Source: a virus
Lineage: Duplodnaviria > Heunggongvirae > Uroviricota > Caudoviricetes
Virus record (IMG/VR): IMGVR_UViG_2541047932_000021
Strand: one strand, 5' to 3'
DNA length: 33,489 bases
Positions 1 through 32,486 of this stretch are shown piece by piece (within the stretch, counting starts at the first letter, position 1; each line of letters begins with the position of its first letter). Both the position numbers and the translations under genes were made by a program. The notes beneath the pieces were generated by a model that did not search any database, was not told where the DNA came from, and worked only from the letters and a program-made list of their open reading frames with translations.

Positions 1-1002
1 TTACCCTCTATTGTCAAAAGGGTTCAATTCAACAGCAGCCTCTAAATGACCTGGAGCAAAATGCGCATAACGCATAGTCATTTTTATATCGCTATGCCCC
101 AGTATTTTTTGCAACACAAGAATATTTCCGCCCCGCATCATAAAATGACTGGCAAACGTGTGACGTAGCACATGAGTTAATTGCCCATCAGGAAGCTCGA
201 TCTTCGCTCTCTTAATTGCAGCGTCAAAAGCCTCATAACATGGTGAAAATAGCGCTCCTCGTTTTTTAGGAAGCATAGCCTGCAATTGAGGTGAAATCGG
301 TACAGTGCGGTTCTTCTTTCCTTTAGTTTTAACAAATGTGATTCGACCGGGCAGTACTTGAGATTGCTTTAATCCTTCTGCTTCACTCCACCGAGCACCC
401 GTCGCAAGCCCAATACGGACAACAACCCCCAAATCTTTATTCCGTGACTCATCACACGCAATCAGAAGGCGTTCAATCTCATCTACATACAGAAACGCCA
501 GTTCCTTTTCTTCCTCACGAAACTTGCGAATACCAGTCAGGGGGTTTTCACCAGACCACTCCCCAAGGCGCTTCAGTTCGGCAAAAACAGCATGTAGATA
601 TGACTGCTCGCGATTAACGGTTGCTTCACTAAGTTTTTTCTTCCCCTTGGGATTCCATTCTCCTGATAGCCTTCTTTCCCGATAAGTAGCAAACATATTT
701 TTGTCAAACTGAGAAGCAAATGGATCTCCCAGCCTGGAACAAATCGCCTCAAGTTTGACTTTGCGCTCTGCACCAGAGGACAAGGTTTTACCGTACATCT
801 CAAACCAACGAGCAATCAACTCAGAAAGACGAGGACCAGAACCATCTTGAAACTCGTCTCCAACTCTACTATTCATTAAACGGCGCTCATAAGAGAGCGC
901 CTCACTTTTTGTCGCAAACTGTTTACGAATGCGTTTTCCCGATGCCCCGTAGGGATAACATTCGCAAAGCCATTTACCTGATGGAATCTTACGAACCGAC
1001 AT
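1..1002 (-). CDS. int: P2-family tyrosine integrase
   Basis: 333 aa; motifs TGARWSEA, RITFVKTKGKKNRTVPIS, HVLRHTFASHF, MTMRYAHFAP match P2 Int catalytic R-H-R-Y region; stop codon at positions 1-3. Confidence 0.9.
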   Translation of the reverse strand: MSVRKIPSGKWLCECYPYGASGKRIRKQFATKSEALSYERRLMNSRVGDEFQDGSGPRLSELIARWFEMYGKTLSSGAERKVKLEAICSRLGDPFASQFDKNMFATYRERRLSGEWNPKGKKKLSEATVNREQSYLHAVFAELKRLGEWSGENPLTGIRKFREEEKELAFLYVDEIERLLIACDESRNKDLGVVVRIGLATGARWSEAEGLKQSQVLPGRITFVKTKGKKNRTVPISPQLQAMLPKKRGALFSPCYEAFDAAIKRAKIELPDGQLTHVLRHTFASHFMMRGGNILVLQKILGHSDIKMTMRYAHFAPGHLEAAVELNPFDNRG

Positions 1003-1007
1003 TTTAG

Positions 1008-1355
1008 TTACTTATCACATAAATCAAATGCAGCCTTAGTGACATCCCCCAGACTCTTTTTTAACCCTGGGGCGGCATCATTATCTAGCCAAAATGGATT
1101 ATTGTTATCTAACGGTAACGCACCAAATGTTTTACCTTTTATTCGAGCCAAACCTGTAAGTGCATATAACTTATTATCGTCAAAATTCATCACATAAGGA
1201 TTACCATCAAGACACTGTAATTGAACCTCATCAGTATTAAATGGCCATACCCCATTGAAACTCTCACGTTCAATAGTTTTAAAAGGCATTGCGACGGCGG
1301 AAAAAGAAAACATAGATAAAAAAGTAACTAATAGTTGAACCTTTTTTACTTTCAT
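1008..1355 (-). CDS. Small secreted protein, unknown function (possibly YebY/DUF2511-like); cargo gene between repressor and int
   Basis: 115 aa; N-terminal signal peptide MKVKKVQLLVTFLSMFSFSAVA; two Cys (C49, C113); family guess is from memory only. Confidence 0.55.
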   Translation of the reverse strand: MKVKKVQLLVTFLSMFSFSAVAMPFKTIERESFNGVWPFNTDEVQLQCLDGNPYVMNFDDNKLYALTGLARIKGKTFGALPLDNNNPFWLDNDAAPGLKKSLGDVTKAAFDLCDK

Positions 1356-1384
1356 ATCATTACCTCAATTTAGCTCAAGTAAGA

Positions 1385-2035
1385 TTACAAATTAAAAAAC
1401 GCCCTAGAAATGACACCGCCTACCAAAACCCCTACGCAGATAAAGAATATTATTTCTTTTGGATAAAGTCGGATTAATTCTGAAGCACGAAGTCGGACTT
1501 CTGGTAAGGTCGAACTCTCTGTGTGGCTTGATGCCGATTGTTGCTCTAACCACGACAATGCAGACTGTAACTGAGAACGAGTAAGATCGTTTAAACGTCC
1601 TGTACCGAAATTGATATGGCAATACCGCAGAAGTTTTTGTCGAAGTCCACAGTCTTCACTGTTACGTAGTAATAAACTTACAAGAGCCTTACAGGCATCA
1701 TGATCTTTACATCGCTCAAGCATTGCATGCAGAAAACTCTCCGCTGTTTTATATTGATTTACTGTCATATCATCAATACCAGCTACACCAATCTCCGCAT
1801 GTACTTTTTGCCAAATAATAAACGCTTCAGTATTGCTAGCTTCTGCAATAGCAGCAACCAAGCTATTTAGCTCCTTACGCTGAGCCTTAAGCAAAGGGCG
1901 ATCGTCATCATCATTATTCGAAGGGATTGCGATATTGACGGTCTGAGAACCATCATATCGCTCTATCTGAATATTCTTTTCGTGAAAATCACGCCCAGCA
2001 ACGCGATTGTTTGAACCGTTTGAGTTGACGGCCAT
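1385..2035 (-). CDS. Tail-anchored membrane protein, unknown function; cargo gene in the lysogeny operon
   Basis: 216 aa; single C-terminal hydrophobic helix IIFFICVGVLVGGVISRAFF; N-terminal motif NGSNNRVAGRDFHE shared with the C-terminus of the upstream repressor; AT-rich. Confidence 0.6.
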   Translation of the reverse strand: MAVNSNGSNNRVAGRDFHEKNIQIERYDGSQTVNIAIPSNNDDDDRPLLKAQRKELNSLVAAIAEASNTEAFIIWQKVHAEIGVAGIDDMTVNQYKTAESFLHAMLERCKDHDACKALVSLLLRNSEDCGLRQKLLRYCHINFGTGRLNDLTRSQLQSALSWLEQQSASSHTESSTLPEVRLRASELIRLYPKEIIFFICVGVLVGGVISRAFFNL

Positions 2036-2050
2036 GTCACCTCCCTACTA

Positions 2051-2455
2051 TCACCTACCCTTAGTTTCGTTATAGTCACGACCAGCGATACGGTTATTAC
2101 CACCAGAAATATTTAACTCACGTCCTGATGGCTGAGTTTCCTTTTCACTGATCGCACCTTTTAAAGCCCCAATCACCGCATTTTTCACATCTAACGAAGC
2201 TGCTCGAAAGCGAGTAATCAACTCCTGCTCATCATCGTTATAAGTTTCAGGTGAGTGAATTCCCAACACAACATACTGAACATCAAGGCCAAAACGAGAC
2301 AGCGCTGCCAAATACGCAGCATCAGGAAAGCTATCTCCTTTCTCATATCTAAGCTGAGTTAGCTTTTTGACTCCACCAATGTCGCTCATGGCAACTTGAC
2401 TAAGTCCCAATCTTTCCCTTTCCTCACGCAACCGCTGACCAATATCATTTTTCAT
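2051..2455 (-). CDS. XRE-family HTH repressor, likely immunity repressor (functional analogue of P2 C / 186 CI)
   Basis: 134 aa; N-terminal HTH LGLSQVAMSDIGGVKKLTQLRYEKG; first gene of the leftward operon reading into int; divergent from the early operon. Confidence 0.7.
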   Translation of the reverse strand: MKNDIGQRLREERERLGLSQVAMSDIGGVKKLTQLRYEKGDSFPDAAYLAALSRFGLDVQYVVLGIHSPETYNDDEQELITRFRAASLDVKNAVIGALKGAISEKETQPSGRELNISGGNNRIAGRDYNETKGR

Positions 2456-2464
2456 ACAAAAACC

Positions 2465-2493
2465 TTGACAGGTATCTTTTTTGATACCAAAAT
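2465..2493. promoter_or_regulatory. Candidate early (rightward) promoter and operator in the lysis-lysogeny switch region
   Basis: TTGACA at 2465-2470; inverted repeat GGTATC-TTTTTT-GATACC at 2471-2488; weak -10 CAAAAT at 2488-2493; sits between divergent repressor and early genes. Confidence 0.3.
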
Positions 2494-2530
2494 GATTTCA
2501 CGAGCTATTAGATGATCACAATATACCACT

Positions 2531-2737
2531 ATGAAACAAGTTCTTCACGATACCAGATCACGCATTCCGCGTAACACCGCCACAGGTCCAAGACTGGCAC
2601 TTCGGCTGTCCCTCGAGGAGCGAGCCGTCATTGATGAAATGGCAGCTAAAGAACAACGCTCATCCTCTAACATGGCGCGCATGATCTTCCTTCGCGGCCT
2701 AGAGCTAACCCAGAAAGAACAAAACAAATCTTCCTGA
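2531..2737 (+). CDS. Ribbon-helix-helix (Arc/Mnt/CopG-like) DNA-binding protein, first early gene
   Basis: 68 aa; beta-strand then two helices pattern LALRLSLEERAVIDEMAAKE...SSNMARMIFLRGLE; no obvious SD. Confidence 0.5.
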   Translation: MKQVLHDTRSRIPRNTATGPRLALRLSLEERAVIDEMAAKEQRSSSNMARMIFLRGLELTQKEQNKSS

Positions 2738-2753
2738 TCAGGAGGCTAGTGGG

Positions 2754-2957
2754 ATGTCAGGTATAACCATCAATATCAATGTGAATGCCCCCTATGTATC
2801 CCTGCAGAAATATGCAGAGATAACAGGTATCCCTCTTAATACATGCAAAAAGATGTTGGCTGACGGTCGAATTATTATCCGACCCAAACGCGCCAAAATG
2901 GAAAAGCCTGAAGTAAACCTTGTGGCGATGTTAAAAGACGCTTTGGCTAACAGCTAA
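2754..2957 (+). CDS. Cox/excisionase-like HTH regulator
   Basis: 67 aa; SD GGAGG 8 nt upstream; segment APYVSLQKYAEITGIPLNTCKKMLADGRI resembles the P2 Cox DNA-binding region. Confidence 0.5.
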   Translation: MSGITININVNAPYVSLQKYAEITGIPLNTCKKMLADGRIIIRPKRAKMEKPEVNLVAMLKDALANS

Positions 2958-2978
2958 AACAATGAACAGAGCACCATC

Positions 2979-3329
2979 ATGAAAAAAAACGCTAATAATC
3001 CATACTCCAAATTTCGTAATGGCGTAGAACGCCATGTACACCACGTCGCTACCAGTGCATCACGTAGTAACAGTCGCTATAACCTGAACGAGACGCACGC
3101 AACACCGGATGGCCACGCTGTAAAACAAATCGGCGAGCATGCCTGGCTGATTGAGAAAGCTGGAATCGTGGTCCACAAATGCCCACGCAATCCGTTTACC
3201 GGAAACCGCATTTTTGCATTGAACTGCGGCGACAATCACTTCGGGCAGGATTTCACATTATACGAAGCACTTCGCACGGTTGATCGTCTGCTTCGCGGGC
3301 AAAGTTTTATTAAACAGGCTGATTTATAA
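2979..3329 (+). CDS. Hypothetical early protein
   Basis: 116 aa ORF in the early operon, same strand, tight spacing. Confidence 0.45.
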   Translation: MKKNANNPYSKFRNGVERHVHHVATSASRSNSRYNLNETHATPDGHAVKQIGEHAWLIEKAGIVVHKCPRNPFTGNRIFALNCGDNHFGQDFTLYEALRTVDRLLRGQSFIKQADL

Positions 3330-3339
3330 CAGGTGCTTT

Positions 3340-3618
3340 ATGACCAAAGAGCATGCACAAGGTGTATTTATCCGTTTTATTGATTTTCGCGGTGAACTGT
3401 TATTACGCGCATCAGCCATTGACGTAGTTGTTCCATCCGAAAAAAACGCAGCTACTTACGTTTATCTGAACGGTACGCGCCTGACTGTGGAGCTTCCGTA
3501 CCAGACCGTACGAGAAATCATTAGCGAAGCTGAAAAGGCACGTCAGGTTAATGGCGATGAACCCTATATCGAAATTATTTGTATGGATTCAGAAGCTGAA
3601 ATTCAGAAAGCAGATTAA
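3340..3618 (+). CDS. Hypothetical early protein
   Basis: ATG at 3340 follows the upstream stop at 3327-3329; the longer ORF from 3280 would overlap the preceding gene. Confidence 0.45.
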   Translation: MTKEHAQGVFIRFIDFRGELLLRASAIDVVVPSEKNAATYVYLNGTRLTVELPYQTVREIISEAEKARQVNGDEPYIEIICMDSEAEIQKAD

Positions 3619-3626
3619 AGGGCGTT

Positions 3627-3872
3627 GTGATGGGCAAAGAATATAAAACTCTCATTAACAAAGCACTTGAGCGTTTTTATTTTCGCTTAAGTGCATCAGG
3701 CGCTCATGCTGAACGTGCGGCCCGTGACTCATTGACCAGAGCAATCCGAAGTCTGTATGACGTGGCTTTTTACGCTGATGATCTGGATGCACTTAACGAA
3801 CTTTCCGAGCTGATCTATGCCGCAGAATGCGGGGAACATATTGAACCGTATAAGCTGGGAAATATCGCATGA
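3627..3872 (+). CDS. Hypothetical early protein
   Basis: 81 aa ORF, same operon. Confidence 0.45.
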   Translation: MMGKEYKTLINKALERFYFRLSASGAHAERAARDSLTRAIRSLYDVAFYADDLDALNELSELIYAAECGEHIEPYKLGNIA

Positions 3873-3982
3873 GTATATTTATCTCATGGCTTGTTCTGAT
3901 TATTTCGGTGGTCTGCGCCATTGGGATTATGCGAATTATTAATTCAGTAAAAAAGATTGAACGCTTTTTCACTGAAGAATAA
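3869..3982 (+). CDS. Candidate 37-aa single-pass membrane peptide
   Basis: ATG overlaps the upstream stop (ATGA at 3869-3872); MSIFISWLVLIISVVCAIGIMRIINSVKKIERFFTEE; below the ORF-track size cutoff, found by reading the gap. Confidence 0.3.
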   Translation: MSIFISWLVLIISVVCAIGIMRIINSVKKIERFFTEE

Positions 3983-4068
3983 CCGCGCAAATAAGACCCC
4001 AGGTTAAATAAGAAAATGTGAAAACAATCCGCATTCGCGGAGGTATTCGCACACGCCAAGGAGGCGTA

Positions 4069-4272
4069 ATGGCAATTAAGCATTTTCCCGTCGTTCGTTT
4101 CACCTCCAAAGGACGTGAATACGAAGTTGACGAACGCCTGATTACCACAATCGACAAACACCGTTCAGAAAAGGATGCATATCACATCTATCTCACTGAC
4201 GGCACTTACTTTTGCGCCACCAACGTGGTGCAGGTAAATCTTATCAGACAGGTACAGGAGTCACGCAGATGA
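4069..4272 (+). CDS. Hypothetical early protein
   Basis: ATG at 4069 preceded by AAGGAGG at 4058-4064. Confidence 0.45.
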   Translation: MAIKHFPVVRFTSKGREYEVDERLITTIDKHRSEKDAYHIYLTDGTYFCATNVVQVNLIRQVQESRR

Positions 4273-4514
4273 CCATTCTGGACTACATCGCTGCCAATCC
4301 GGGTTGTAGCGGTGGAGAAATCGCCGCAGCACTGAATACACCAACCACAACCATTAATGCGGAGCTACGCCGTCTCTGGCGCAGCGGTTCAGTCATAAGA
4401 AAAGAGCGCAAAACAGGCGGTCGCTTTTCTTATCAGGTAAACCCGATGCCGTTTGGGTGTAGCAACCCACTAACCCAGATGTTCAACCAGCTACTGAGGG
4501 AAATCAGAGCATGA
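4269..4514 (+). CDS. Small winged-helix-like DNA-binding protein
   Basis: 81 aa from ATG 4269 overlapping the upstream stop; MTILDYIAANPGCSGGEIAAALNTPTTTINAELRRLWRSGSVIRKE resembles a wHTH fold. Confidence 0.45.
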   Translation: MTILDYIAANPGCSGGEIAAALNTPTTTINAELRRLWRSGSVIRKERKTGGRFSYQVNPMPFGCSNPLTQMFNQLLREIRA

Positions 4515-4655
4515 GCACCTCCAACTGCCGGAAACCACGTCGGGCTTCAGCAGCTCATCCGGCAGCAAAACAAACTCCATTAATTCCTGTTCCGGGTCTT
4601 TCCTGCACCTTGTGGCGGGAGGCCTTCGCACATCTGTAACAAGAGGATTGCCGCA

Positions 4656-5021
4656 ATGATTCTCGCCAACGACTTTCTTGAATACCTGCTCAACACAGAG
4701 CGTGATCTTGCCGTTCGCGTGCGTGAACGTTATGACATGTACCTGAAATCCCTGCCTGTACCGCAGCTCGCTGACGGAAAGATTGTTATTGATGGTCGCT
4801 ACATGATTGACAGCCACGAGGGAAATTACAGGCTTTACCGCATTGAAGGTGGCACCCCGTCCGTTATTGGCATTTACCAGCGCCCATCCTCTGCAATCGT
4901 CAATGTGATTGCCGACAGCATCCGCATCACACATCGCCATGCCGACACAGAAGACACCGTGCTGGAAATTCAGCGGCTGGCTACAGTCTGCCGCGACACC
5001 CTGAATGGCATGACGAAGTAA
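4656..5021 (+). CDS. Hypothetical protein immediately upstream of A (position of P2 gene B)
   Basis: 121 aa ORF; function inferred from position only. Confidence 0.4.
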   Translation: MILANDFLEYLLNTERDLAVRVRERYDMYLKSLPVPQLADGKIVIDGRYMIDSHEGNYRLYRIEGGTPSVIGIYQRPSSAIVNVIADSIRITHRHADTEDTVLEIQRLATVCRDTLNGMTK

Positions 5022-5027
5022 ATCACT

Positions 5028-7685
5028 ATGACGGCAGAGTACATCAGGGACTGGCAACAACCGCGCCACGCAGTGGGGCGTGAAGGAACGGGGATCCCCG
5101 CTCCTGAATCCGCGCTTTCCTCCTGGCTGGATGCCTACCGGGCAGAGAACGAGCGCCGCCAGGAAATGGCTGATGCGGCGTTCTCCGCCACGCCGCTGGG
5201 CAACCTGATTAATAAAAGCCTGGACGCACAGGAAAAACAGGACAAAACAATCACACTGGCAGGAGACGCCAGAAAACAGGCACGCGGCGCGGTAGATGAG
5301 GCCATGGCCTCACTGCGCCTGCTGCCGTCCTATCTGCGCGATCCGCTTATTCGCCACCTCTCCTTCCTGCGCAAAAAACAGGAAGCCGATCGTCAGAAAG
5401 GAAAAAACGCCAGGCAGGCAGAACGCTATGCGCGTGGGACCCTGCGCAAAATATTCGAACGTCTGGAGCGCACCGATCACCGCTGGCTGACATCGGGTTA
5501 TCGCTCCCTTGCCGGACGTGAACGCCTGGACGATTTGCTTTACCTGCCGCAACTCAACAAACACCAGATACAGACGCTGGCCACCATGACGGCGGCGATG
5601 TTCAGCAGCACCTTCGAAAAACTCTGCGATGGTTTTGGCGCGACTGATGGCGAGCTGACCATGGATGTAACGCTGAAGGCGTATCAGATGCTGGCCCGCA
5701 TGGCGTTACACTTACACGCCATGCCTCCGCATTATGACGCACTGACAACAGACAAAGACCGGAGGCACGAACCGGACACAGAACTGCTGCCGGGCGCAAT
5801 CCTTCGCCTGACCTGTGCGGAATGGTGGAAACGCAAACTGTGGCTGTTACGTTGCGAGTGGAGAGAAGAACAACTCCGCGCCGCCTGTCTGGTTTCCAGA
5901 AAAACATCGCCCTATCTGAGCCAGGACGCGTTAAGCGAGTTTCGCGCACAGCGCGAGAAAACACGCGATTTCCTGAAAAGTTTCATGCTGGAAAATGAAG
6001 ACGGGTTCACGATTGATCTCGAGACGGTGTATTACGCGGGAGTAAGTAACCCGGTTCACCGTAAGGCAGAAATGATGGCCACCATGAAGGGGCTGGAACT
6101 TCTGGCCGAAGCCCGTGGCGACAAAGCGGTGTTTCTGACTGTCACCTGCCCGTCAAAATACCACGCCACAACGGAGAACGGTCATCCGAATCCCAAATGG
6201 AACGGGGCCACAATGCGCGACTCCAGCGATTACCTGGTTAACACGTTTTTTGCGGCGGTCCGCAAAAAACTGAACCGCGACGACCTGCGCTGGTATGGCA
6301 TCCGCACGGTGGAGCCTCATCATGACGGCACCGTGCACTGGCATATGATGGTCTTTGCACATCCGGAAGAAATCGACACCATTGTGTCCCATACCCGCGA
6401 TATTGCCATTCAGGAAGACCGCCACGAGCTGGGCAATGATATTACTCCGCGCTTTAAGGTGGAGTATGTCGACGGCTCAAAAGGCACGCCAACCAGCTAC
6501 ATCGCCACCTACATCGGAAAGAACCTGGACAGCCGCGCCGTGGATGGCATCGACCCGAAAACGGACAAGCCACGCGTGGACCACGAAACCGGAAAATCAA
6601 TGGCCGAGAGCGTGGAACGCGCCATCGGCTGGGCGCGTCTTCACCGCGTCCGCCAGTTCCAGTTCTTTGGTATCCCCCCCCGTCAGGTATGGCGTGAACT
6701 CCGCCGCCTTGCCAGTCAGATGGCCCGCAACCCGGAAGGTCCACAACGTCTGGAAAATGACGCAATGGATGCGGTACTCGCTGCCGCTGATGCCGGGTGT
6801 TTTGCCACCTACATTGAGAAACAGGGTGGCGTACTTGTTCCACGCAAAGACTACCTGATTCGCACCGCCTACGACCTCGCAGAAGAGCTGAACGATTACG
6901 GCGAGCAAAGCGTACAGATTTACGGGATCTGGTCGCCACAAATCGGGGAATCTTCCCGCGTGTGCACGCACCCGGATAACTGGAAGCTGGTAAGACGTAA
7001 ACCGGAAGCGGAAGACAGCGCCCGCGAAAATGGTTTTGACCTTCAGGGCGGCCCTGCCGCCCCTTGGACTCGTGGCAATAACTGTCCCCGTGTACAGGAA
7101 ACGGACAACAACGGGACAGAACAGCCGGAAGAACGGCCAGCACCGTGGCCGCAGCTCCCTGACGGCGTTGAAGTGAACGAATGGATGCGCTCACTGAAAC
7201 GGCACGAACGCCGGGCGCTGATGCGTTCGCTTCGTGACAAACAGGCAAAAAACAGCAGTGATGAAGCGCAGAGCTGGACACAGAGCCGCAAACAGCAGCG
7301 GCCTTTGCCTGATAACCACGAATTACTCGCTAAAGAATGGCGGGAGTCTGCTGAATCTCTCGGCCTGCATATCGGTGAACAACAGATGCAGCACCTGTTA
7401 CGGGGCGGCAGTCTGTACGTTGACGGCAGCATCATTGCACCGCAGGGATTTGAAATTGTACGCAAACCGGATACCCGCCTGGACAGCCGAATCACGCAGC
7501 TCTGGCAGCGCCTGAGCCGTAATCATGGCGTAAGCAGCACGGAGATCCGCCATAACCCGGTCGCCAGCTATCTGGCACAGCTGGGGGCATCAGACCCTGA
7601 AGCCGCCGCACGCCTGGCATCGCCCCCATCAGTTGCGGCGGAACGCGGTGCGCAGCCAGCACATCATCACGGGATGCCGCCTTAA
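5028..7685 (+). CDS. A: Rolling-circle replication initiator endonuclease gpA (HUH family); 3' end uncertain
   Basis: 885 aa; HUH motif region HHDGTVHWHMMVFAHPEE; tyrosine region TSYIATYIGKN; ORF overlaps convergent Q by 194 nt so the true stop may be earlier. Confidence 0.8.
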   Translation: MTAEYIRDWQQPRHAVGREGTGIPAPESALSSWLDAYRAENERRQEMADAAFSATPLGNLINKSLDAQEKQDKTITLAGDARKQARGAVDEAMASLRLLPSYLRDPLIRHLSFLRKKQEADRQKGKNARQAERYARGTLRKIFERLERTDHRWLTSGYRSLAGRERLDDLLYLPQLNKHQIQTLATMTAAMFSSTFEKLCDGFGATDGELTMDVTLKAYQMLARMALHLHAMPPHYDALTTDKDRRHEPDTELLPGAILRLTCAEWWKRKLWLLRCEWREEQLRAACLVSRKTSPYLSQDALSEFRAQREKTRDFLKSFMLENEDGFTIDLETVYYAGVSNPVHRKAEMMATMKGLELLAEARGDKAVFLTVTCPSKYHATTENGHPNPKWNGATMRDSSDYLVNTFFAAVRKKLNRDDLRWYGIRTVEPHHDGTVHWHMMVFAHPEEIDTIVSHTRDIAIQEDRHELGNDITPRFKVEYVDGSKGTPTSYIATYIGKNLDSRAVDGIDPKTDKPRVDHETGKSMAESVERAIGWARLHRVRQFQFFGIPPRQVWRELRRLASQMARNPEGPQRLENDAMDAVLAAADAGCFATYIEKQGGVLVPRKDYLIRTAYDLAEELNDYGEQSVQIYGIWSPQIGESSRVCTHPDNWKLVRRKPEAEDSARENGFDLQGGPAAPWTRGNNCPRVQETDNNGTEQPEERPAPWPQLPDGVEVNEWMRSLKRHERRALMRSLRDKQAKNSSDEAQSWTQSRKQQRPLPDNHELLAKEWRESAESLGLHIGEQQMQHLLRGGSLYVDGSIIAPQGFEIVRKPDTRLDSRITQLWQRLSRNHGVSSTEIRHNPVASYLAQLGASDPEAAARLASPPSVAAERGAQPAHHHGMPP

Positions 7686-8496
7686 CATTCATGAACTCAT
7701 CCTTTGCGGTGATCTGCTGGAACGGCAAAATTTGCACCCCCTCTTTGCCCCCGTTGGGCGCATGGATGAGCACGTTTTTAAACGCGCCACCACCACGCGC
7801 ACCCTGTAACGTTTCTTTCAGGGAGTCCATGCTTTCGCGGTTTACCTGCGCTGCACCGATGTAGATGATGCACCCGGCGTGGGATCCATTGTCGTAATAC
7901 AGTTTTCTGAACATGTCCGCCGAATGAGACAGGCTGGCCGAGAGTAATGCGCCAAGATATTCCGGCATGCCGTAAATTTCCTGGTTAATGTCCGGATTCA
8001 TCAGGTGGCACACTTTGCCAGGGCGAAACTGAAACGCATCCTTGCCATCCTGCACATACCACCATGATTCAAGATCGCTTCCGCGTCGCATGTATTTCGC
8101 CAGGGCGTGCCGTAATTTAAGCGGTTCGCCGAACATATTGCTTCGAAGCTCAAGGAATGCGTTACCGAACACAAACCAGTCCAGCGCCAGCGCCGAGAAA
8201 TCCTGCCGGGAAAGCAGCGGGTGCGGGATGTAGCACCCGAGCAATACGTTGCGCTTAAAGTAAAGCGCAGACTGATGCCAGGACGTTTGCCGGGCGGCTC
8301 TTGCCAGACCGTACCAGTCCACCGGGGTTTCATACCACCGCCCGTTATCAGCACAGTACATATTGTCCAGCAAATCATGCCCGGTCAGGCGATAAGGACC
8401 ATCAAAAGTGAATGCACTGAGCGACGATTCTTTCCTGAGCGCATCAGCGAGATCAATGCGTGAACTCATGCGCACTTTTTTATTTTTTCTGCTCAT
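7492..8496 (-). CDS. Q: Portal (capsid) protein gpQ; 3' end uncertain
   Basis: 334 aa; P2 Q-like sequence through VPPQLMG; Pro/Gly-rich tail overlaps the A ORF end. Confidence 0.8.
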   Translation of the reverse strand: MSRKNKKVRMSSRIDLADALRKESSLSAFTFDGPYRLTGHDLLDNMYCADNGRWYETPVDWYGLARAARQTSWHQSALYFKRNVLLGCYIPHPLLSRQDFSALALDWFVFGNAFLELRSNMFGEPLKLRHALAKYMRRGSDLESWWYVQDGKDAFQFRPGKVCHLMNPDINQEIYGMPEYLGALLSASLSHSADMFRKLYYDNGSHAGCIIYIGAAQVNRESMDSLKETLQGARGGGAFKNVLIHAPNGGKEGVQILPFQQITAKDEFMNVKAASRDDVLAAHRVPPQLMGAMPGVRRLQGLMPPAVPDSWRPGYGGSPCCLRHDYGSGAARAA

Positions 8497-10246
8497 CAGA
8501 ACTCCATAACTGTGAAACGCTCGTTTTCTCCTTCGCCGCCAATTGGTTCGTTAATGACAGCAAGCATGGTTGCCCACGCAAGGTCGCCGTGGCTGCTCCC
8601 CCTCGCGCGGTCCGTTTCGTAAGTGATAAAGCCGCCCGGTGTTTTCACCTTACGCACGGCGTTAAAGGCCGCGACCAGCTCGCGTTCGGCGCGATCGTAT
8701 TCCCACCGCCCGGCACGCATTATTTGCAGCATTTTCAGTACAAGCGACCGTTTTGATGACAGCGTGAAGGTGTACGGAATAGCGGCAGGGAAAAACCGTT
8801 TCACTATCTGATAAACAGCCTCCCCGTTCCCGCCCGTCACATCAATGCCGATGTGTTCCACGTTGTAGCGATACGTGAAATCTTCAATGACTCTGGCCTG
8901 TTCTTCAAACTCCAGCCCCTGAACGCGTCGCGTCTCCACCGTTCGAAAACGGCCACCAGGAACAGCCGGAGGAACCACCACGGACACAGCGCCGCTGTCG
9001 CCGTTGCCACTGCTGCCGTTTGCGTCATACCCAATCCATACCGGACGATTCCCCATCGGGCGGGGAGCAAAAGGTTTCCAGTCTTTCCAGTCGTCGTATC
9101 CGTCAACACCGCAGCCAATCAGGATATTCAGGTTAAATGCCGATTCCCCTTCGCGGACAAACTCACACATATAGAGATTGAGGAACTCGTCTTCGGTGTT
9201 TTCATCACGAATTTCGTCGATATCGGTGTGTTTCCAGCCGTGATTAACCACATCTTCCAGCGTGACAATTTGCCGCCACGTCCGGTCAGGGCAGATAAGC
9301 CCGTTATGCAGCGTTTTCCAGTCCACAGAAAAACGCTGGCGTTTATGCGTGGCCTTTTTCTCGTTCCAGCGGTCGCCGTTCCAGTAGGCGTATGCTTCGT
9401 GCGTTTCGGTGGATGGCGTGGAGAAGTAGGTGCGCCGCAATCCGCTGAGGGTTGCCATAGCGCCAGCCACCTTGCGCAGTTCAGCAAAGCGACTGACCCA
9501 GAAAAATTCATCAAAATAAAAATTGCCCGTATAGGACTGCGCCGACGCAGCAGAAGTGCCGAGAAAATGCAGCTCTGCGCCGTTGGAGAGGATGATTTTA
9601 TCGCCCCCTTTCAGCTCCACATCAACTTCAGCCGCAGCCTTCTGAATAATGCTTTTAAACTGGAACGCCTGACGACGCGACGCAGACAAAAAATCTGGTT
9701 ACGCTGGTAAGGTTGCGCCACATCGTCACGCAGCGCCATCAGCAGTGCTTCCTGTGCAAAATACCAGGTCGCGCCAATCTGTCGGGATTTCAGGATCATC
9801 CTGTTACGTATCCCGGCTTCCCTGCAAAGGGTCAGGGAGTCAAACCAGCCCCGCTGATGCCACTCCAGCCTGCTGATGATTTTTTCCCGCAGTGCGGCAA
9901 TCTGTTCCGGCGTGAAATGATTTTTGAGTTTTTTCGCCCGGCCTTTCTTTCCTGTGGCCGTCGCATCCGGCTGGCCATCATGCATTTTTTTAAGCTGCCG
10001 GGTCAGCAGGTCTATTTCCTTAAAGTCACCGCCTGTTTTATTCTGTTTTTCAGTAAGCTGGATGAGGCGCGCATCGATGGACTGCGTGACACGCTGCACG
10101 GGTGGCGTTTCATCCCACTGGTCGCGTTTTTTCCACGCATAAATCGTGTTCGGGTTTATTCCCATCAGACGTGATATTTCTGCGGGCGGATAACCCTGCC
10201 AGTAAAGTTGCCGCGCACGCTGGCGCACAAAAGCGTCCTGAATCAT
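8496..10246 (-). pseudogene. P: Large terminase (ATPase) subunit gpP, interrupted by a 1-nt frameshift in a homopolymer
   Basis: N-terminal ORF 9611..10246 and C-terminal ORF 8496..9689 are each P2 gpP-like; frames diverge at the A6 run 9688-9693; one extra A would give a continuous ~583-aa protein reading NQIF-LSAS. Confidence 0.75.
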
Positions 10247-12358: not shown

Positions 12359-13159
12359 ATGATTACTCCTGCACAACAACACTGGCAGAACGTGATGGCA
12401 CAGCGCGCAGGCCGGGCGAATGAAGGTGTGGACCACGCCGCGCGTACCGCGCATGAAGAGGTGCTGTATCGTCTGCGTCTGGCACAGGCCAGGCTAAAGG
12501 GCGTACAGGCCAGAAGCGCGAAAGCCGCCATCAAAAAAGAGTTGTTGCCGGACTTTTCCGGCTGGATTGAGGGAACGCTGGAGACTGACGGCGGGCAACA
12601 GGACGAAGTAATTGCCACGCTGATGGTGTGGGCGATTGACTGCGGCGATCTTCCGCTGGCGCTGCGTATTGGTGCATATGTGGTCCGTCACAACCTCATC
12701 ATGCCGGATAACTTTGGCCGTACTGCTGCCACGGTACTGACCGAAGAAATCTGCAACCCGGTACTGACGCAGGCCGGGACGGATGCCGACGCGGATTTAT
12801 CCGCCTTTATCGAACCACTGGACACACTTTGGGAAATTGTCGCCAACCAGGACATGCCGGACGAAGTGCGCGCCAAATTATGCAAGGCGTGTGCCTTTGC
12901 CCGTCGTGGCCTGACCGATGCAGACAACATGGCCTCATCACTGAAGCTGCTGCGCGAAGCGATGCACCTGAACCCGAACGCAGGTGTGAAACGCGAGATT
13001 GCAACCCTTTCCCGCGCCCTGAAAAAAGCCGATTCCGCAGCCGCACCAGAAGACGCCAGCGCACAGCAGACGCAGGACGAAAGCAGCAAAAGTAAAAAGA
13101 CAACGCAGAAGCCTGCAACACGAAAAACCACCGCGTCGCAGAAGGCGAAGCGCGGTTAA
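12359..13159 (+). CDS. M: Terminase small (endonuclease) subunit gpM
   Basis: 266 aa; DMPDEVRAKL and AGVKREI motifs as in P2 gpM; basic C-terminal tail. Confidence 0.85.
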   Translation: MITPAQQHWQNVMAQRAGRANEGVDHAARTAHEEVLYRLRLAQARLKGVQARSAKAAIKKELLPDFSGWIEGTLETDGGQQDEVIATLMVWAIDCGDLPLALRIGAYVVRHNLIMPDNFGRTAATVLTEEICNPVLTQAGTDADADLSAFIEPLDTLWEIVANQDMPDEVRAKLCKACAFARRGLTDADNMASSLKLLREAMHLNPNAGVKREIATLSRALKKADSAAAPEDASAQQTQDESSKSKKTTQKPATRKTTASQKAKRG

Positions 13160-13262
13160 CGACTGACCCCGTCAGCGGGCGGCGTGCGCGGTGTTCCGGT
13201 TTGACTCCGTGACCGTTTACACCGCGCACCCACCGCCCGATTTTTTTTCAGGAGTGAACTCC

Positions 13263-13757
13263 ATGAGTATGGTTGCCAGAACTGAACCAGGACCCGCAGA
13301 GGACGACATCACCGATACCGATGATGGCGACACTCGCATTTCAGCAGGTGCATTCTGGCCGGATATTGTGCTGCGCGAGCTGCGTCTGGCGGTACGACTG
13401 CCGGGCCGCGTGACCACCTCCCGCCTGCTGCATACCGCCACTGGGGCCGTGGCTCACGTTACCCGCGAACTGGAAGCGTGGCAGCAGGAACAGCAGGCGG
13501 CTGGCCATCAGACGCTGGCCGATGTTCCGGCACCCGTAATTAACGGAGAAAGCGTCAATCTCTGGCACTGGCGCAATGCTGTTTATACCGCCACACGTGC
13601 CCTGATTCTGGAGCGTTACCGCGATGCGGACACAACGGACAAGGGCGATCGCCGGGCGGACGCACTGGATATACAGACATCGGATTTGTGGCGCGATGTG
13701 AGCTGGGCCATCTCTGACATTCTGTGCCGCCCGCGAATCTTTGCGGAGTTGTGCTGA
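13263..13757 (+). CDS. L: Head completion/stabilisation protein gpL
   Basis: ATG 13263 after SD AGGAGTG; the longer ORF from 13191 lacks an SD. Confidence 0.75.
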   Translation: MSMVARTEPGPAEDDITDTDDGDTRISAGAFWPDIVLRELRLAVRLPGRVTTSRLLHTATGAVAHVTRELEAWQQEQQAAGHQTLADVPAPVINGESVNLWHWRNAVYTATRALILERYRDADTTDKGDRRADALDIQTSDLWRDVSWAISDILCRPRIFAELC

Positions 13758-15142: not shown

Positions 15143-15218
15143 CGCGGATAAACGGGCCATTGCTGAACTGGATAAGAGAATAGCCGAACTGACACACCAG
15201 ACGGGAGTAACACAATGA
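14907..15218 (+). CDS. o-spanin (Rz1/LysC-like outer-membrane lipoprotein), partly nested in the i-spanin gene
   Basis: Different frame starting inside the i-spanin gene; lipobox LLTGC; proline-rich; SD GGAGAGG before GTG 14907 (alternative start ATG 14937). Confidence 0.7.
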   Translation: MNSYATILQKMNAPTLCLTLVLLTGCAGTQNAPRPAPSIRLIPQTLTMPVTPPPFPAPPTWGNLGIWGDRLLDALETCNADKRAIAELDKRIAELTHQTGVTQ

Positions 15219-17095
15219 CCAGTAAGAACTTTGCACTGATTACAGCCATGACACAGGCTGAACTGACCCGGAAAGTGAATGAATATCTTGCGAAGGGGTG
15301 GCATCTTCAGGGGGACACACGGGTAGCTTACGAGCCCGGCACCCCGTGGTATCTCATGCAGGCCATGGTGGCCGATGGTGCCACCGAGACGCCCTCTGAG
15401 CCATTACCAAACAACAAGACGCCGGAATGGTACTACGTGGTTGTGCTTGCCGGGCAGTCCAACGGCATGGCTTACGGTGAAGGGCTTCCGTTACCGGATT
15501 CTTACGATGCTCCGGATCCGCGCATTAAACAGCTTGCGCGCCGCAGTACGGTAACCCCGGGTGGAGAGGGTTGTACGTATAACGACATCATCCCGGCTGA
15601 CCACTGTCTGCATGATGTGCAGGATATGAGTACGCTGAATCATCCGAAGGCGGACCTGAGCAAAGGTCAGTACGGCTGTGTGGGACAGGGACTTCATATT
15701 GCCAAAAAACTACTCCCGTATATCCCGAATAACGCGGGGATCCTGCTGGTACCATGCTGTCGTGGTGGTTCGGCATTCACTCAGGGCGCGGAGGGAACAT
15801 TCAGTACGACCACGGGGGCCAGCCAGGATTCGGCGCGCTGGGGTGCGGGTAAGCCGTTATATCAGGACCTGATCGCACGCACCAAAGCGGCATTACAGAA
15901 GAACCCGAAAAATGTGTTGCTGGCGGTGTGCTGGATGCAGGGCGAATTTGACATGAGCGCTGCCACCTACGCACAGCAACCGGACCTGTTCACGGCCATG
16001 CTGAAGCAGTTCCGTACTGACCTTTCCGGATTTAACGCGCAGTGCCATGGCGGCAGTGCTGCAGTTATACCGTGGATTTGTGGCGACACGACGTATTACT
16101 GGAAAAACACATACGGCACACAGTATGACTCCGTCTACGGCGCGTACAAAAACAGGGAGAGCGACAACGTTTTCTTTGTGCCGTTCATGACCGACGGTAA
16201 CGGCAACAACACGCCCACCAACTTACCGGCAGAAGACCCGGATATTGCTGATGCAGGTTATTACGGCGCGCAATCCCGTAGTAATGGTAATTGGGTATCG
16301 TCAAATCGTCCGACACATTTCAGTTCATGGGCGCGCAGGGGCATTATTTCGGATCGCCTGGCAACCGCTATTCTGAACGCAGTTGGTCGAACCAGCGCCT
16401 TCATCAGCGGTACCGCACCGGAAATCAAACCCTCGCCCGGCGGCGACACTCCATCGGGGCCGTCTGATGGTGACACATCCGTTCGTACAGTCTCCCTGCT
16501 GCCGACAGCCGGAGAGGCTGCTGCGCAGGGCTGGACCATCACCGGCGGCAGTGTTGCGCTGGAAGATGGTGTGTTTAAGGTTACCAAGCAGAGCAATAAA
16601 ACTTGGTCCCTGATGCATCCGGTGGATGACGCAGTCTCCCTGCTGACACGGGGTGGCAGACTGAGCTGTAAGTTTCGACTGTCAGGCGCACTGACCAACA
16701 ACCAGTTCGGTCTGGGAATTTATCTGTATACCGATGTAGCGTTACCTGACGTCGTGGCGATGACCGGGACTGGTAACCCGTTCCTGATGTCGTTCTTCAC
16801 CCAGACCACAGACGGCAAACTGAATCTGATGCATCACAAGAAAGCCGGAAACACAAAGTTGGGTGAGTTCGGGAATTACAGTAACGACTGGCAGACGCTG
16901 GAGCTGGTGTTCACCGCCGGCAGTGCCACGGTTACTCCGAAACTGAATGGAGTGGCTGGCCCGGCATTCCAGGTCATAAAAGACAGTCTGACACTGGGGC
17001 TGAATGCGCTGACGTTAACTGATATCACTAAAAATGCCGCGTACGGCGTCGATATCGGCAGCCTGGTGCTGGAAATCAATAATCCCGCAGTATAA
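15215..17095 (+). CDS. NanS-p-like carbohydrate O-acetylesterase (DUF1737 N-domain, SASA/SGNH-type esterase core, C-terminal beta-rich domain)
   Basis: 626 aa; N-terminus MTSKNFALITAMTQAELTRKVNEYLAKGWHLQGD; GQSN motif in VVVLAGQSNGMAYGE; ATG overlaps the o-spanin stop. Confidence 0.7.
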   Translation: MTSKNFALITAMTQAELTRKVNEYLAKGWHLQGDTRVAYEPGTPWYLMQAMVADGATETPSEPLPNNKTPEWYYVVVLAGQSNGMAYGEGLPLPDSYDAPDPRIKQLARRSTVTPGGEGCTYNDIIPADHCLHDVQDMSTLNHPKADLSKGQYGCVGQGLHIAKKLLPYIPNNAGILLVPCCRGGSAFTQGAEGTFSTTTGASQDSARWGAGKPLYQDLIARTKAALQKNPKNVLLAVCWMQGEFDMSAATYAQQPDLFTAMLKQFRTDLSGFNAQCHGGSAAVIPWICGDTTYYWKNTYGTQYDSVYGAYKNRESDNVFFVPFMTDGNGNNTPTNLPAEDPDIADAGYYGAQSRSNGNWVSSNRPTHFSSWARRGIISDRLATAILNAVGRTSAFISGTAPEIKPSPGGDTPSGPSDGDTSVRTVSLLPTAGEAAAQGWTITGGSVALEDGVFKVTKQSNKTWSLMHPVDDAVSLLTRGGRLSCKFRLSGALTNNQFGLGIYLYTDVALPDVVAMTGTGNPFLMSFFTQTTDGKLNLMHHKKAGNTKLGEFGNYSNDWQTLELVFTAGSATVTPKLNGVAGPAFQVIKDSLTLGLNALTLTDITKNAAYGVDIGSLVLEINNPAV

Positions 17096-18214: not shown

Positions 18215-18792
18215 GCGCAGAACTCATGCGACTGCTGAGCAACATCATCCGCACCGGGATCATCTCTGAAGTTGATGAGAAGTCCTGGCGCGTGCGCGTT
18301 CGCAGCGGCGAACTGGAAACAGGCTGGTTGCGCTGGAACACCACGCGCGCGGGAGCCTTCAATGTGTGGCTGCCGCCATCACCAGGCGAACAGGTGGTAA
18401 TTGCCTGCATTGGCGGCAACCCGGAAACCGCCATGATAATTGGCAGCCTGTGGAGTGATGCCAGTCCGGCCCCCGGCAAAAGCCTGAAAGAAATCGTGGT
18501 CAGCGCGCCGGATGGCGCGGTGTTCCGCTACGACGCAGACGCTGGCGCACTGAGCGCCAGCGGCATGAAAACAGCCACCCTGCAGGCATCCGTCAGCGTG
18601 ACACTGGATACGCCCGTCGTGGAATGCACAAACCTTCTGAGAACAGCGACGCTTGACGTCACAAAAGGGGGAAAGATGAGCGGCAATATCACGCACAGCG
18701 GCGGCAACTTCACCTCAAACGGCATCACAGTGCATACGCATAAACACGGTGGCGTTAAAGGTGGCAGCGATTCGACAGGAGGCCCGCAGTGA
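18211..18792 (+). CDS. V: Baseplate spike protein gpV
   Basis: 193 aa; strong similarity to P2 gpV (IRTGII, LDTPVVECTN, VHTHKHGG). Confidence 0.9.
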   Translation: MSAELMRLLSNIIRTGIISEVDEKSWRVRVRSGELETGWLRWNTTRAGAFNVWLPPSPGEQVVIACIGGNPETAMIIGSLWSDASPAPGKSLKEIVVSAPDGAVFRYDADAGALSASGMKTATLQASVSVTLDTPVVECTNLLRTATLDVTKGGKMSGNITHSGGNFTSNGITVHTHKHGGVKGGSDSTGGPQ

Positions 18793-19139
18793 CAGCCCGC
18801 TACACAGGAATGAACCCGGACGGGACGGGAAACCTGAATGATATGGAGCACCTGAAACAGTCAGCCAGGGACATCCTGACCACCCCGCTGGCCAGCCGGG
18901 TTATGCGACGGGAATATGGCAGCCTTGTACCTGATTTGATTGACGAACCCATGAATAACACCACGCGTCTGCAATGCATGAGTGCTGCCGTGATTGCGCT
19001 GACACGATGGGAACCCCGCATTGCCCTGGACGCCATCGACGTTGTCTGGAAAGCGGGAGGCCGCGCCGGGGTGACGCTGTCGGGCACAGTCATGCAGACC
19101 ATGCAGAATGTTGAGTTAACCATCACGCTGAGGGAGTAA
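18789..19139 (+). CDS. W: Baseplate wedge protein gpW
   Basis: 116 aa, GTG start overlapping the V stop. Confidence 0.85.
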   Translation: MTARYTGMNPDGTGNLNDMEHLKQSARDILTTPLASRVMRREYGSLVPDLIDEPMNNTTRLQCMSAAVIALTRWEPRIALDAIDVVWKAGGRAGVTLSGTVMQTMQNVELTITLRE

Positions 19140-20039: not shown

Positions 20040-20640
20040 TTCACTGTTACCACCATCAGCCAGCAATTTCATGCGTTGTGCCGAAGCCGTCGGAACACGC
20101 ATTACAGACATTCCGGTAGACCTCAACACGCTGTGGTCGCCGGACACCTGCCCGGTGCATCTGCTGCCTTATCTCGCCTGGGCGTTTTCCGTTGACCGCT
20201 GGGATCGCAACTGGCCGGAAGAGACAAAGCGACAGGTGATTCGTGATGCATGGCTGACACACCGACACAAAGGGACCATCAGCGCACTGCGAAGAGCCGT
20301 GGAGCCTCTCGGCTACCTGATTGAAGTAAAGGAGTGGTGGCAACTCAACGAGGAGCCAGGAACATTTCGCATTGTTGTCGGAGTACTTGATCAGGGCATC
20401 ACCGATGAAATGTATCAGGAACTTGAGCGCCTTATTGCGGATGCAAAACCAGTAAGTCGCCATCTGACGGGGCTGGCGATCAGCCTGAGTGTGAACGGAA
20501 AGATTTTCGTTGGTACGGGATGCTATCACGGCGATGCCCTGACGGTTTATCCCTACATCCCGGAGTCCATTATTGTCGAAGGGGATTATTTCCCTGCCCC
20601 GGCCATTCATTTAATTGATAATCTGAGAGTAAACGCATGA
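20032..20640 (+). CDS. I: Baseplate / tail formation protein gpI
   Basis: ATG 20032 overlaps the J stop; [14 protein letters not shown] and VSRHLTG motifs as in P2 gpI. Confidence 0.85.
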
Positions 20641-22640
20641 CAGTGAAATACTACGCCATTCTGACTAATCAGGGCGCGGCACGACTGGCTAACGCGACGA
20701 TGCTCGGCAGTAAGCTGAATCTGACGCAAATGGCCGTTGGTGATGCAAATGGTGTGTTACCAACACCAGACCCTGCACAAACAAAACTGATTAACCAGAA
20801 ACGCATTGCACCGCTGAATCTTCTGAATGTTGACCCTAACAATCAGAGCCAGATTATTGCGGAGCAAATCATCCCTGAAGACGAGGGAGGATTCTGGATC
20901 CGTGAGATTGGTCTTTATGATGATAAAGGTGTACTCATTGCGGTGGCAAACTGCCCGGAAACGTACAAACCGCAGTTGCAGGAAGGCAGTGGACGCACCC
21001 AGACTATCCGCATGATTCTGGTTGTCACGAACACCAAAGCCATCACGCTGAAAATCGACCCGTCTGTGGTTCTGGCAACCCGCAAATATGTGGATGATAA
21101 AATCTCAAAGCACGAGCAGTCACGACGTCACCCGGACGCCTCGCTGACCGCAAAAGGCTTTGTTCAACTCAGTAGCGCCACCAACAGCGATTCAGAAACG
21201 CTGGCGGCAACACCAAAGGCGGTAAAGGCAGCCTATGACCTTGCTAACGGGAAATATACCGCACAGGACGCCACGACAGCACAAAAAGGCATTGTCCAGC
21301 TCAGTAGCGCCACCAACAGCGATTCAGAAACGCTGGCGGCAACACCAAAGGCGGTAAAGGCAGCCTATGACCTTGCTAACGGGAAATATACCGCACAGGA
21401 CGCCACGACGGCACAAAAAGGAATTGTCCAGCTCAGTAGTGCAACCAACAGCACATCTGAAACGCTTGCTGCAACACCGAAAGCAGTGAAAGCAGCTAAT
21501 GACAATGCGAATGGTCGGGTACCTTCTGCCCGTAAGGTGAATGGTAAGGCGCTTTCGGCGGATATAACACTGACGCCGAAAGATATTGGTACGCTTAACT
21601 CAACAACAATGTCATTCAGCGGTGGTGCTGGTTGGTTCAAATTAGCAACGGTAACCATGCCACAGGCGAGTTCTGTTGTTTCAATTACGTTGATTGGTGG
21701 CGCTGGATTTAACGTCGGTTCACCTCAACAGGCAGGTATATCTGAACTTGTTTTGCGTGCAGGTAATGGTAATCCGAAGGGGATTACTGGTGCTTTATGG
21801 CAGCGCACATCGACAGGGTTTACAAATTTTGCCTGGGTCAATACATCTGGTGATACTTACGATATTTACGTTGCAATCGGAAATTATGCGACTGGTGTAA
21901 ATATTCAATGGGATTATACCAGTAATGCCAGCGTGACGATTCATACGTCACCAGCATATTCTGCTAATAAGCCGGAAGGGTTAACGGACGGTACAGTTTA
22001 TTCACTCTATACGCCATCAGAGCAGTTTTATCCGCCTGGCGCACCAATCCCGTGGCCATCGGATACCGTTCCGTCTGGTTATGCCCTGATGCAGGGGCAG
22101 ACTTTTGACAAATCTGCCTACCCGAAACTTGCAGCCGCTTATCCGTCAGGCGTGATCCCTGATATGCGTGGCTGGACGATTAAGGGCAAACCCGCCAGTG
22201 GCCGGGCCGTATTGTCTCAGGAACAGGACGGCATTAAATCGCACACCCACAGCGCCAGCGCATCCAATACGGATTTGGGGACGAAAACCACATCGTCGTT
22301 TGATTACGGTACTAAAACGACCAGTTCATTTGATTACGGCACAAAAACCACAAATAGCGCAGGAGCTCATTCACACAATATACCTGTTGGTCACACTGGC
22401 GCGGGGAATGGTGTATCAGCCGGTTATAACGCTGCGTTAGGTACTGGTACCACGTCGAGCGCAGGAGAGCATGCTCACAATGTATATATCGGTGCCCATA
22501 ACCACACTATCGGCATTGGTGCTCATGCCCATTCTGTCATTATTGGTCCCCACGGACACACCATCACCGTTAATGCTACGGGGAACGCAGAAAACACCGT
22601 AAAAAACATCGCATTTAACTATATTGTGAGGCTTGCATAA
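20637..22640 (+). CDS. H: Tail fibre protein gpH with internal tandem repeats and His-rich C-terminal region
   Basis: 667 aa; N-terminus and C-terminus ([39 protein letters not shown]...[18 protein letters not shown]) match P2 gpH as recalled. Confidence 0.9.
21168..21563 (+). repeat. Three in-frame tandem 132-bp (44-aa) repeats inside gene H
   Basis: Unit starts at 21168, 21300 and 21432; copies 1 and 2 differ at 2 of 132 nt; copy 3 is diverged. Confidence 0.9.
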
Positions 22641-23261: not shown

Positions 23262-23834
23262 CTATTTATACAATACAGCACCGCTCTTTTTAGTTATATA
23301 TGTGCAGTTCGATGGTATATCTTTATTTATAAAAGACATTGCACCTATTTTTACATTATCCCCAATTTTACGGGATAATCCAATGATGCAACAATTAGCT
23401 CCGATATCAACGTTGCTACCAATTTTTACTCTTGAACCAGGTATGTCACCATCTATCTGTCCAATGGTCGTATTCTGTCGTAACACCAGATTTTCACCAG
23501 CATCAACAGCAAAATGAACAACAATTCCAGCATGATGGGGAATTGTTAACCCTTTTCCAATATTTGCGCCCAATCCAATTTCGCAACCAAATTTGTTAAT
23601 TATTTTACTGTTTAACTTCTTGGCTGCTTTCTTATGTAATTTATTACCATTAATATACATTTCGTTAGCCAACCGCCACCAGAAAAGGAAATTCCTGTTA
23701 CGCTGCTTTTTCTCTCTTAAAAGCCTCCAGATATCCATACGTTTCCGCCGAATTACTTCATGTTTCCAGAAGTTTTTTAAATTAGTAGAGTTCCCAAATA
23801 AAACAAAGTGAATTGCCATTAGGTAAGACAGCAC
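23262..23834 (-). CDS. Hexapeptide-repeat (left-handed beta-helix) acetyltransferase, CysE/NodL/NeuO-like; AT-rich cargo gene
   Basis: Core HHAGIVVHFAVDAGENLVLRQNTTIG...KIGSNVDIGANCCIIG; start set at GTG 23834 with AAGGAG 6 nt upstream (ORF track begins at 23867); AT-rich compared with flanking tail genes. Confidence 0.65.
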   Translation of the reverse strand: MLSYLMAIHFVLFGNSTNLKNFWKHEVIRRKRMDIWRLLREKKQRNRNFLFWWRLANEMYINGNKLHKKAAKKLNSKIINKFGCEIGLGANIGKGLTIPHHAGIVVHFAVDAGENLVLRQNTTIGQIDGDIPGSRVKIGSNVDIGANCCIIGLSRKIGDNVKIGAMSFINKDIPSNCTYITKKSGAVLYK

Positions 23835-23990
23835 GATAATCTCCTTAATTATTATTTCAGACCACACATGTTATAAGGTTAAGAGATTATAAAATCCTGT
23901 TGTTTATTATTCAAAAACAATTTTCTGAGAAGGACATACAACAGCAAGTCGCCAGTCACCTTCATCAGGAAATTGGCGACATACGTTAAA

Positions 23991-32334: not shown

Positions 32335-32418
32335 AGTTTAAACAGCACGTGCACTACCATTGTTTCTGCATATCGCCACACCATCGCCACTCAACCGCCA
32401 TTGCACAAAATACAAATA

Positions 32419-32441
32419 CAAAAAAACCACCCGAAGGTGGT
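32419..32441 (-). terminator. Rho-independent terminator of the glyW-cysT-leuZ operon
   Basis: Read on the minus strand: stem CCACC / GGTGG with 4-nt loop followed by a T-run, directly downstream of leuZ. Confidence 0.6.
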
Positions 32442-32486
32442 TTCACGACACTGCTTATTGCTTTGATTTTATTCTTATCTTTCCCA

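Follow-up and report, generated by a model that had tools for sequence, protein, structure and literature searches.

The closest described relatives of the locus analysed here are the Xuanwuvirus phages P88, which was induced from E. coli K88 (PMC5285337), and Shae_phiSM. The large terminase in both records is a single CDS of 1752 nt encoding 583 aa, with the Pfam architecture Terminase_5, Terminase_6N and Terminase_6C. The portal and terminase genes share one strand, and the head genes gpO, gpN and gpM are divergent on the other. The locus described below has the same gene order and domain architecture as these two phages. When the maps of P88, Shae_phiSM, the E. coli 2013C-3342 prophage and P2 were compared with it, the terminase gene was found next to the portal gene and divergent from the gpO-gpN-gpM head operon. 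The terminase of P2, gpP (590 aa, NP_046758), is 44% identical in amino acids to the product of the gene under study, end to end. Rousset et al. (PMC9122126) place the cos-proximal region of P2-like phages between gpA and gpQ, and in P2 cosL is 187 nt from the end of Q.

The window, by which we mean the whole 33,489-nt stretch of DNA that was analysed, contains a P2-like, P88-like (Xuanwuvirus, Peduoviridae) E. coli prophage at the leuZ tRNA beside pgsA. Its left edge is the end of the integrase gene (positions 1-1002, minus strand), and int is followed by the early region, the head, lysis and tail genes, gpD, ogr and hok/gef, the last of these near the right end of the window. The window then ends with a tRNA-Leu(taa)-Cys-Gly cluster and pgsA, where two features mark the boundary of the element:

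32487-32789: tRNA-Leu(taa), tRNA-Cys and tRNA-Gly genes
32418-32541: 124-bp stretch repeating the int-flanking sequence of relatives, overlapping the tRNA-Leu(taa) gene

The 124-bp repeat is the att duplication (attR); attL lies outside the window, since the window begins at the int end. With the exception of the terminase, portal and gpA genes, the ORF lengths in the window equal those of the annotated genes in the 2013C-3342 prophage.

Several other features of the element were recorded. Cargo-like genes are present within the late region, namely a gene for a 626-aa SASA/DUF6645 protein (15215-17095), which separates the lysis from the tail genes, and, beside the gene for tail fibre assembly, a serine acetyltransferase gene (23262-23867). 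Towards its 3' end (22360-22470) the tail fibre gene departs sharply, through many small indels, from the otherwise 99%-identical 2013C-3342 prophage, as is usual for this mosaic host-range cassette in P2-like phages. Two genes of the 2013C-3342 prophage, the tail fibre gene and gpW (which has an extra G), are themselves annotated as frameshifted; the window copies of gpW (18789-19139) and of the tail fibre gene (20637-22640) are intact. The 2013C-3342 prophage also carries a 17-bp tandem duplication, at or next to the start of an early-region gene, that is absent from the window (position 3868). A 6-bp in-frame Ala-Leu repeat in the portal gene (8189-8194) is present in the window and in P88, and absent from the 2013C-3342 prophage.

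The gene under study lies at 8496-10246 and is 97.4-98.9% identical in nucleotide sequence, over the whole 1751-nt stretch, to the large terminase genes of 16 Xuanwuvirus phage records, including P88 and Shae_phiSM. Its parts, and the domains identified in them by Pfam, are as follows:

8496-10246, minus strand: large terminase pseudogene (P2 gpP type; Xuanwuvirus/P88-like), 1751 nt against 1752 nt in intact relatives
9611-10246, minus strand: N-terminal fragment ORF of 211 aa, made up of 186 native residues and a 25-residue out-of-frame tail (CLRRVV...LMWS)
8496-9689, minus strand: C-terminal frame of 397 codons, beginning LSASRRQAF
9688-9693: A6 on the plus strand, T6 on the coding strand of the minus-strand gene; site of the 1-nt deletion, T7 in relatives
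N-terminal fragment, residues 6-63: gpP-type HTH domain (PF06056), E = 1.8e-27, full profile coverage
N-terminal fragment: Terminase_6N ATPase domain (PF03237), profile positions 1-34
C-terminal frame: Terminase_6N ATPase domain (PF03237), profile positions 34-211
C-terminal fragment, residues 219-380: RNaseH-like nuclease domain (PF17289), E = 2.2e-32
Intact relative: all three domains on one chain, Terminase_6N profile positions 1-211

The ORF map of the window shows the two minus-strand frames overlapping at 9611-9689. The first 186 residues of the upstream ORF finish in ...NQIF, and together with the 397 codons of the downstream frame they give 583, the exact length of the intact homologue in P88, Shae_phiSM and E. 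coli 2013C-3342. As the frames sum to 583 aa and align with these homologues, the pair represents a homology-supported split gene and not a chance pair of ORFs. Gene callers place the start of the C-terminal frame at a GTG at 9620, giving a protein of 374 aa, and the public NCBI records name the two fragments separately, as an "HTH protein" and a "terminase family protein". By its sequence the gene is a member of the gpP-type family, but is predicted to be a pseudogene.

The lesion itself is a single missing base. Alignment with P88, Shae_phiSM and phage 503458 showed that the window differs in length from all three only by one T missing from a run of seven, and comparison with the 2013C-3342 prophage showed the same single loss. 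The plus-strand context of the run is ...GCAGAC AAAAAA TCTGG..., and the coding strand reads AAC CAG ATT TTT TGT CTG, where the T7 run of the relatives reads ATT TTT TTG (Ile-Phe-Leu). The window thus differs from P88 and Shae_phiSM in the loss of one T, and its frame breaks after residue 186. P2 gpP shares the NQIFLSAS motif at the break point; it encodes Ile-Phe-Leu as ATT TTT CTG, with a T5 run, so that the T7 run is specific to the P88-like lineage. The intact gene holds just two 7-nt runs, and the other (A7 on the coding strand, 9985-9991 in the window) is unaltered. The initial annotation had described a gpP-type terminase split by the loss of one nucleotide in the A6 run, with 186 and 397 codons on either side, and both its coordinates and its codon counts were correct. 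Its proposal that one extra base would restore a continuous protein across an NQIF-LSAS junction agrees with the alignment of the relatives, which gives 583 aa. It had also suggested comparing the run length in related prophages; the active phages P88 and Shae_phiSM have T7 and an uninterrupted gene, and not two proteins split at A6.

The break falls at position 34 of 215 in the Terminase_6N profile, and the ATPase domain is not contiguous in the window, being divided over two polypeptides. KSRQIGAT, which lies among the native residues of the N-terminal fragment and is shared by P2 gpP, was assigned by eye as a putative Walker A motif; FYFDEF was assigned in the same way as a putative Walker B region. 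On this assignment the break would separate the Walker A motif from the Walker B region, and neither fragment should therefore work as a packaging motor.

A mononucleotide run is a classic location for errors in 454, Ion Torrent and long-read data, and the true genome could in principle have T7 and an intact terminase, with the missing T produced by sequencing or assembly. A related phage record would give some weight to this explanation: the terminase gene of phage 503458 carries four separate 1-nt deletions. However, the exact 211-aa frameshift product, including its out-of-frame tail, was found on 22 contigs. Ten of these, from ten different samples, were fetched from NCBI (GCA_040330875.1 and GCA_019591045.1), the ENA (metagenome ERZ28580088) and Logan (assemblies SRR6396339, ERR180867, ERR10882377, ERR3097308, SRR29545841, SRR15369461 and ERR14760744), and T6 was present in all ten of the loci examined. 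Compared with the window, the loci show 0-30 SNPs, and shared SNPs and two recombined patches divide them into sub-lineages. NCBI protein records assign the fragments to E. coli, including strains UMEA 3292-1 and 3-475-03_S3_C2. The occurrence of T6 in ten differing samples identifies the frameshift as an inherited allele of one E. coli lineage, for which draft and read-set assemblies are the only known sources.

The quality of the window assembly was assessed by alignment of more than 30 kb with the prophage of E. coli 2013C-3342, to which it is 99% identical. Among frameshifting 1-nt indels, only the one in the terminase run can be ascribed to the window; the other, at 19048, is the annotated gpW frameshift of 2013C-3342 itself. 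The remaining gaps correspond to the mosaic tail-fibre tip or to 6-nt and 17-nt length polymorphisms. All other runs of at least 7 nt in the window, including the second 7-nt run in the terminase gene, equal those of the relative in length. As the terminase run is the one frameshifting lesion that the window contributes to this alignment, the window assembly is not generally error-prone. The option of a sequencing error, raised in the initial annotation, is refuted by the presence of T6 in ten samples that differ from one another by SNPs, and we consider an artefact extremely improbable. The phage 503458 record (RefSeq NC_049341.1, locus 3001-5861) is a separate matter. Its four 1-nt deletions lie in short runs of the terminase gene, its terminase and portal genes are annotated as three and four ORFs, respectively, and its lesions look like uncorrected sequencing error, unlike the single lesion of the window.

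The distribution of the run was also analysed in 5,426 complete E. coli genomes. A 71-nt stretch spanning the run matched 1,238 places, with no exact match to the T6 version among them; all of the top matches listed for this 71-nt query span 72 nt, and among the full-gene matches listed in E. coli, 40 of 40 are 1752 nt long. The sampled top matches in phages likewise have a gene of intact length. From these comparisons, T7 is the functional and conserved state, and the run is seemingly no recurrent mutation hot spot.

A second and larger lesion lies beside the terminase gene. When aligned with the 2013C-3342 prophage, the window matches over positions 1-7621 and again over 7611-30234, and 2,972 bp of the relative are left out between these two blocks. 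The initial annotation had overlooked this deletion. The affected features are as follows:

7611-7621: deletion junction, with GGCATC microhomology (GCCYGGCATC shared at 9 of 10 bases)
7492-8496, minus strand: truncated portal gene, 334 aa
5028-7685, plus strand: truncated replication endonuclease gene (gpA-like), 885 aa against 940 aa, with the PF05840 catalytic domain kept

The deletion runs from within the portal gene to within gpA: it takes the last ~53 portal codons and the intergenic sequence beyond them, two hypothetical genes, parM with a parP-like gene, and the 3' end of gpA. In the portal protein, ~51 conserved C-terminal residues give way to 39 unrelated ones encoded across the junction; the lost C-terminus is conserved from P88 to P2 gpQ, and the Pfam match stops at profile position 241, against position 294 of 321 for the intact protein. 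The gpA-like protein has lost its last ~76 native residues, with read-through of the junction in their place. The two truncated ORFs are now convergent and overlap by ~190 nt. The junction was present in every fetched contig long enough to reach it, which included seven of the ten T6 loci; the remaining three contigs end just before it. No place in the complete E. coli genomes covered the junction, and a search with the junction as an exact pattern found no match in the GTDB species-representative genomes.

The interval between gpA and gpQ holds cos in P2-like phages and is deleted here, and on the basis of this synteny the cos site was probably lost with it. The 19-nt cohesive end of P2, which we take to be GGCGNGGCGGGGAAAGCA, was not found in 14 loci, a set that includes the intact 2013C-3342 prophage and three phage loci. 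Within the window, the same 19-mer gave a single match with three mismatches, inside gpA, a level that was reached by 12 of 100 shuffled sequences. A short-word BLAST comparison of P2 bases 1-190 with the intact relative returned matches of chance length only. The linear record LR595891 begins ~400 nt past the portal stop codon, inside the interval that is deleted in the window; this position is the start of a record and perhaps not a physical end.

Whether the deletion or the frameshift arose first is addressed by contigs with the truncated portal gene, for which a look-up returned 19 contigs. One of these (L017, also L025; Logan SRR21910924) carries the deletion junction together with T7, and its terminase is a continuous 583 aa. 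Over 3 kb the contig shows no other difference from the window. It has the ancestral base at the one informative site (11638) and one private SNP, and T6 is common to all three sub-lineages. An order in which the deletion came before the frameshift requires one change in the run, against two for a reversion, so the deletion most parsimoniously came first. This order, in which the deletion would have preceded the T6 frameshift, is suggested by one read-set assembly. The T7 contig could instead be a revertant, or a collapsed assembly bubble if the sample also has an intact P88-like prophage.

Further lesions were identified in sister lineages. In L018 and L021 (L021/L027), a CAG>TAG nonsense change at window position 10060 shortens the N-terminal fragment to 62 aa. 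In five other loci (L005, L007, L011, L013 and L014), a 1-nt deletion at 10950, outside any homopolymer, splits the scaffold gene gpO into parts of 88 and 189 aa. Such additional nonsense and frameshift lesions are the pattern expected of genes that are no longer selected. Dense clusters of SNPs, each in a single sub-lineage, were observed at window positions 12594-13346 (L006/L009) and 15535-15853 (L005), and suggest small patches of recombination from other P88-like prophages after the deletion. As all other structural genes in the window are intact, the inactivation appears to be recent.

A coding run at the boundary of two overlapping frames also raises the question of recoding, by which a -1 ribosomal frameshift, or insertion of a U during transcription, would restore full-length terminase from T6. 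Programmed -1 frameshift sites include the A AAA AAG of dnaX and the E/E+E' site of P2, and P2-like phages have a T-rich -1 frameshift site in the tail chaperone gene. The window resembles these sites in having a T-rich mononucleotide run where two frames overlap. If the P-site tRNA-Phe slipped by -1 on UUU_U, the product would be exactly the native NQIF-LSAS, and the length of the run varies within the lineage, given the T7 contig described above. The window nevertheless differs from programmed frameshift and slippage sites in several respects. The two-ORF layout is not conserved, with T7 in frame in the active phages and in effectively all of the 1,238 copies. The zero-frame codons are AUU UUU UGU, so that no X XXY YYZ heptamer is in phase. 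No stimulatory structure was found downstream, as the 88 nt 3' of the run fold no better than shuffled sequences (z = -0.16). Transcriptional slippage is exemplified by the U run of mxiE and the A9 of Thermus dnaX, and selection against it is evident at runs of ~9 nt in many bacteria (PMC1088944); the run in the window, at 6 nt, is below this length and too short for the polymerase to slip efficiently.

The genetic background also argues against recoding. T6 is confined to a lineage without the portal C-terminus and the cos region, and an upstream nonsense change follows in some members; there is thus no sign of selection to keep the gene expressed. A full-length terminase would meet no intact portal and, presumably, no cos. 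Trace -1 slippage of the P-site tRNA on U6 is possible, and nothing suggests that it is used. We therefore regard recoding at this site as very unlikely. The suggestion in the initial annotation that the run might be a slippage-prone functional tract was likewise not supported, with T7 effectively fixed in more than 1,200 copies, a short run, and neither a heptamer in phase nor a stable downstream fold.

The same T7 contig is the argument for a phase-variable switch, in which the run would toggle between T6 and T7 to control packaging: T6, in many assemblies, and T7 occur on the same deletion background and are otherwise identical over 3 kb. However, T7 is represented there by a single contig, for which the ancestral state is simpler and requires one event in the tract rather than two, and T6 is absent from the 1,238 copies in complete genomes. 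Seven bases is also short for a contingency locus, and a terminase that was turned on would achieve nothing with the portal truncated and the cos region deleted. A switch of this kind is in our view exceedingly improbable. A wider form of the idea is also given very little credence: in a domesticated P88-like prophage without cos, the T6/T7 run would act either as a switch that can be reversed or as a site of low-level recoding. If this were true, the host would keep conditional expression of the terminase rather than lose the gene outright, for instance for particle production or in the service of a satellite.

The findings are best explained, with high confidence, by a real and inherited loss-of-function frameshift in a decaying, defective prophage. 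A microhomology-mediated deletion of 2,972 bp removed the C-termini of the portal and gpA proteins together with the interval between them, and the prophage was probably already defective when the terminase frameshift arose. Selection on the packaging genes would then have been relaxed, and one T was subsequently lost from the T7 run inside the terminase ATPase domain, most likely via replication slippage. As one of the two longest homopolymers in the gene, this run may be considered an expected early target of mutation under relaxed selection. The nonsense and frameshift lesions in the sister lineages would have followed later. The comparisons support the terminase lesion being secondary, in a prophage already crippled by the 3-kb deletion. 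The initial annotation had offered a real inactivating mutation that makes the prophage unable to package DNA; the mutation is real, but it would not be the cause of the predicted packaging failure. The portal and gpA C-termini and the gpA-gpQ interval are deleted, and one assembly combines the deletion with T7.

A prophage is classed as defective when essential replication or packaging elements have been lost, and the window has a truncated portal, a truncated gpA and a frameshifted terminase. It resembles the cryptic prophages of E. coli in its large deletion over essential genes (including, by inference, cos), in the frameshift of a packaging gene and in the further lesions of its sister lineages. 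It differs from them in being at an early stage of decay, with the other lysis, tail and head genes at full length against the annotation of the relative.

The significance of these findings beyond annotation is small. The decay of a defective prophage through a homopolymer frameshift is well understood as a class of event, and the allele is already in public databases as two proteins. The region 8496-10246 should be annotated as one frameshifted terminase pseudogene, and not as an HTH protein and a terminase family protein. The lineage provides a small, clean case of stepwise prophage decay, from a deletion to what would then be a homopolymer frameshift, followed by nonsense and further frameshift lesions. 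With its portal and gpA truncated and the cos region apparently gone, the prophage is to be scored as defective, which affects predictions of inducibility for the E. coli lineage that carries it.
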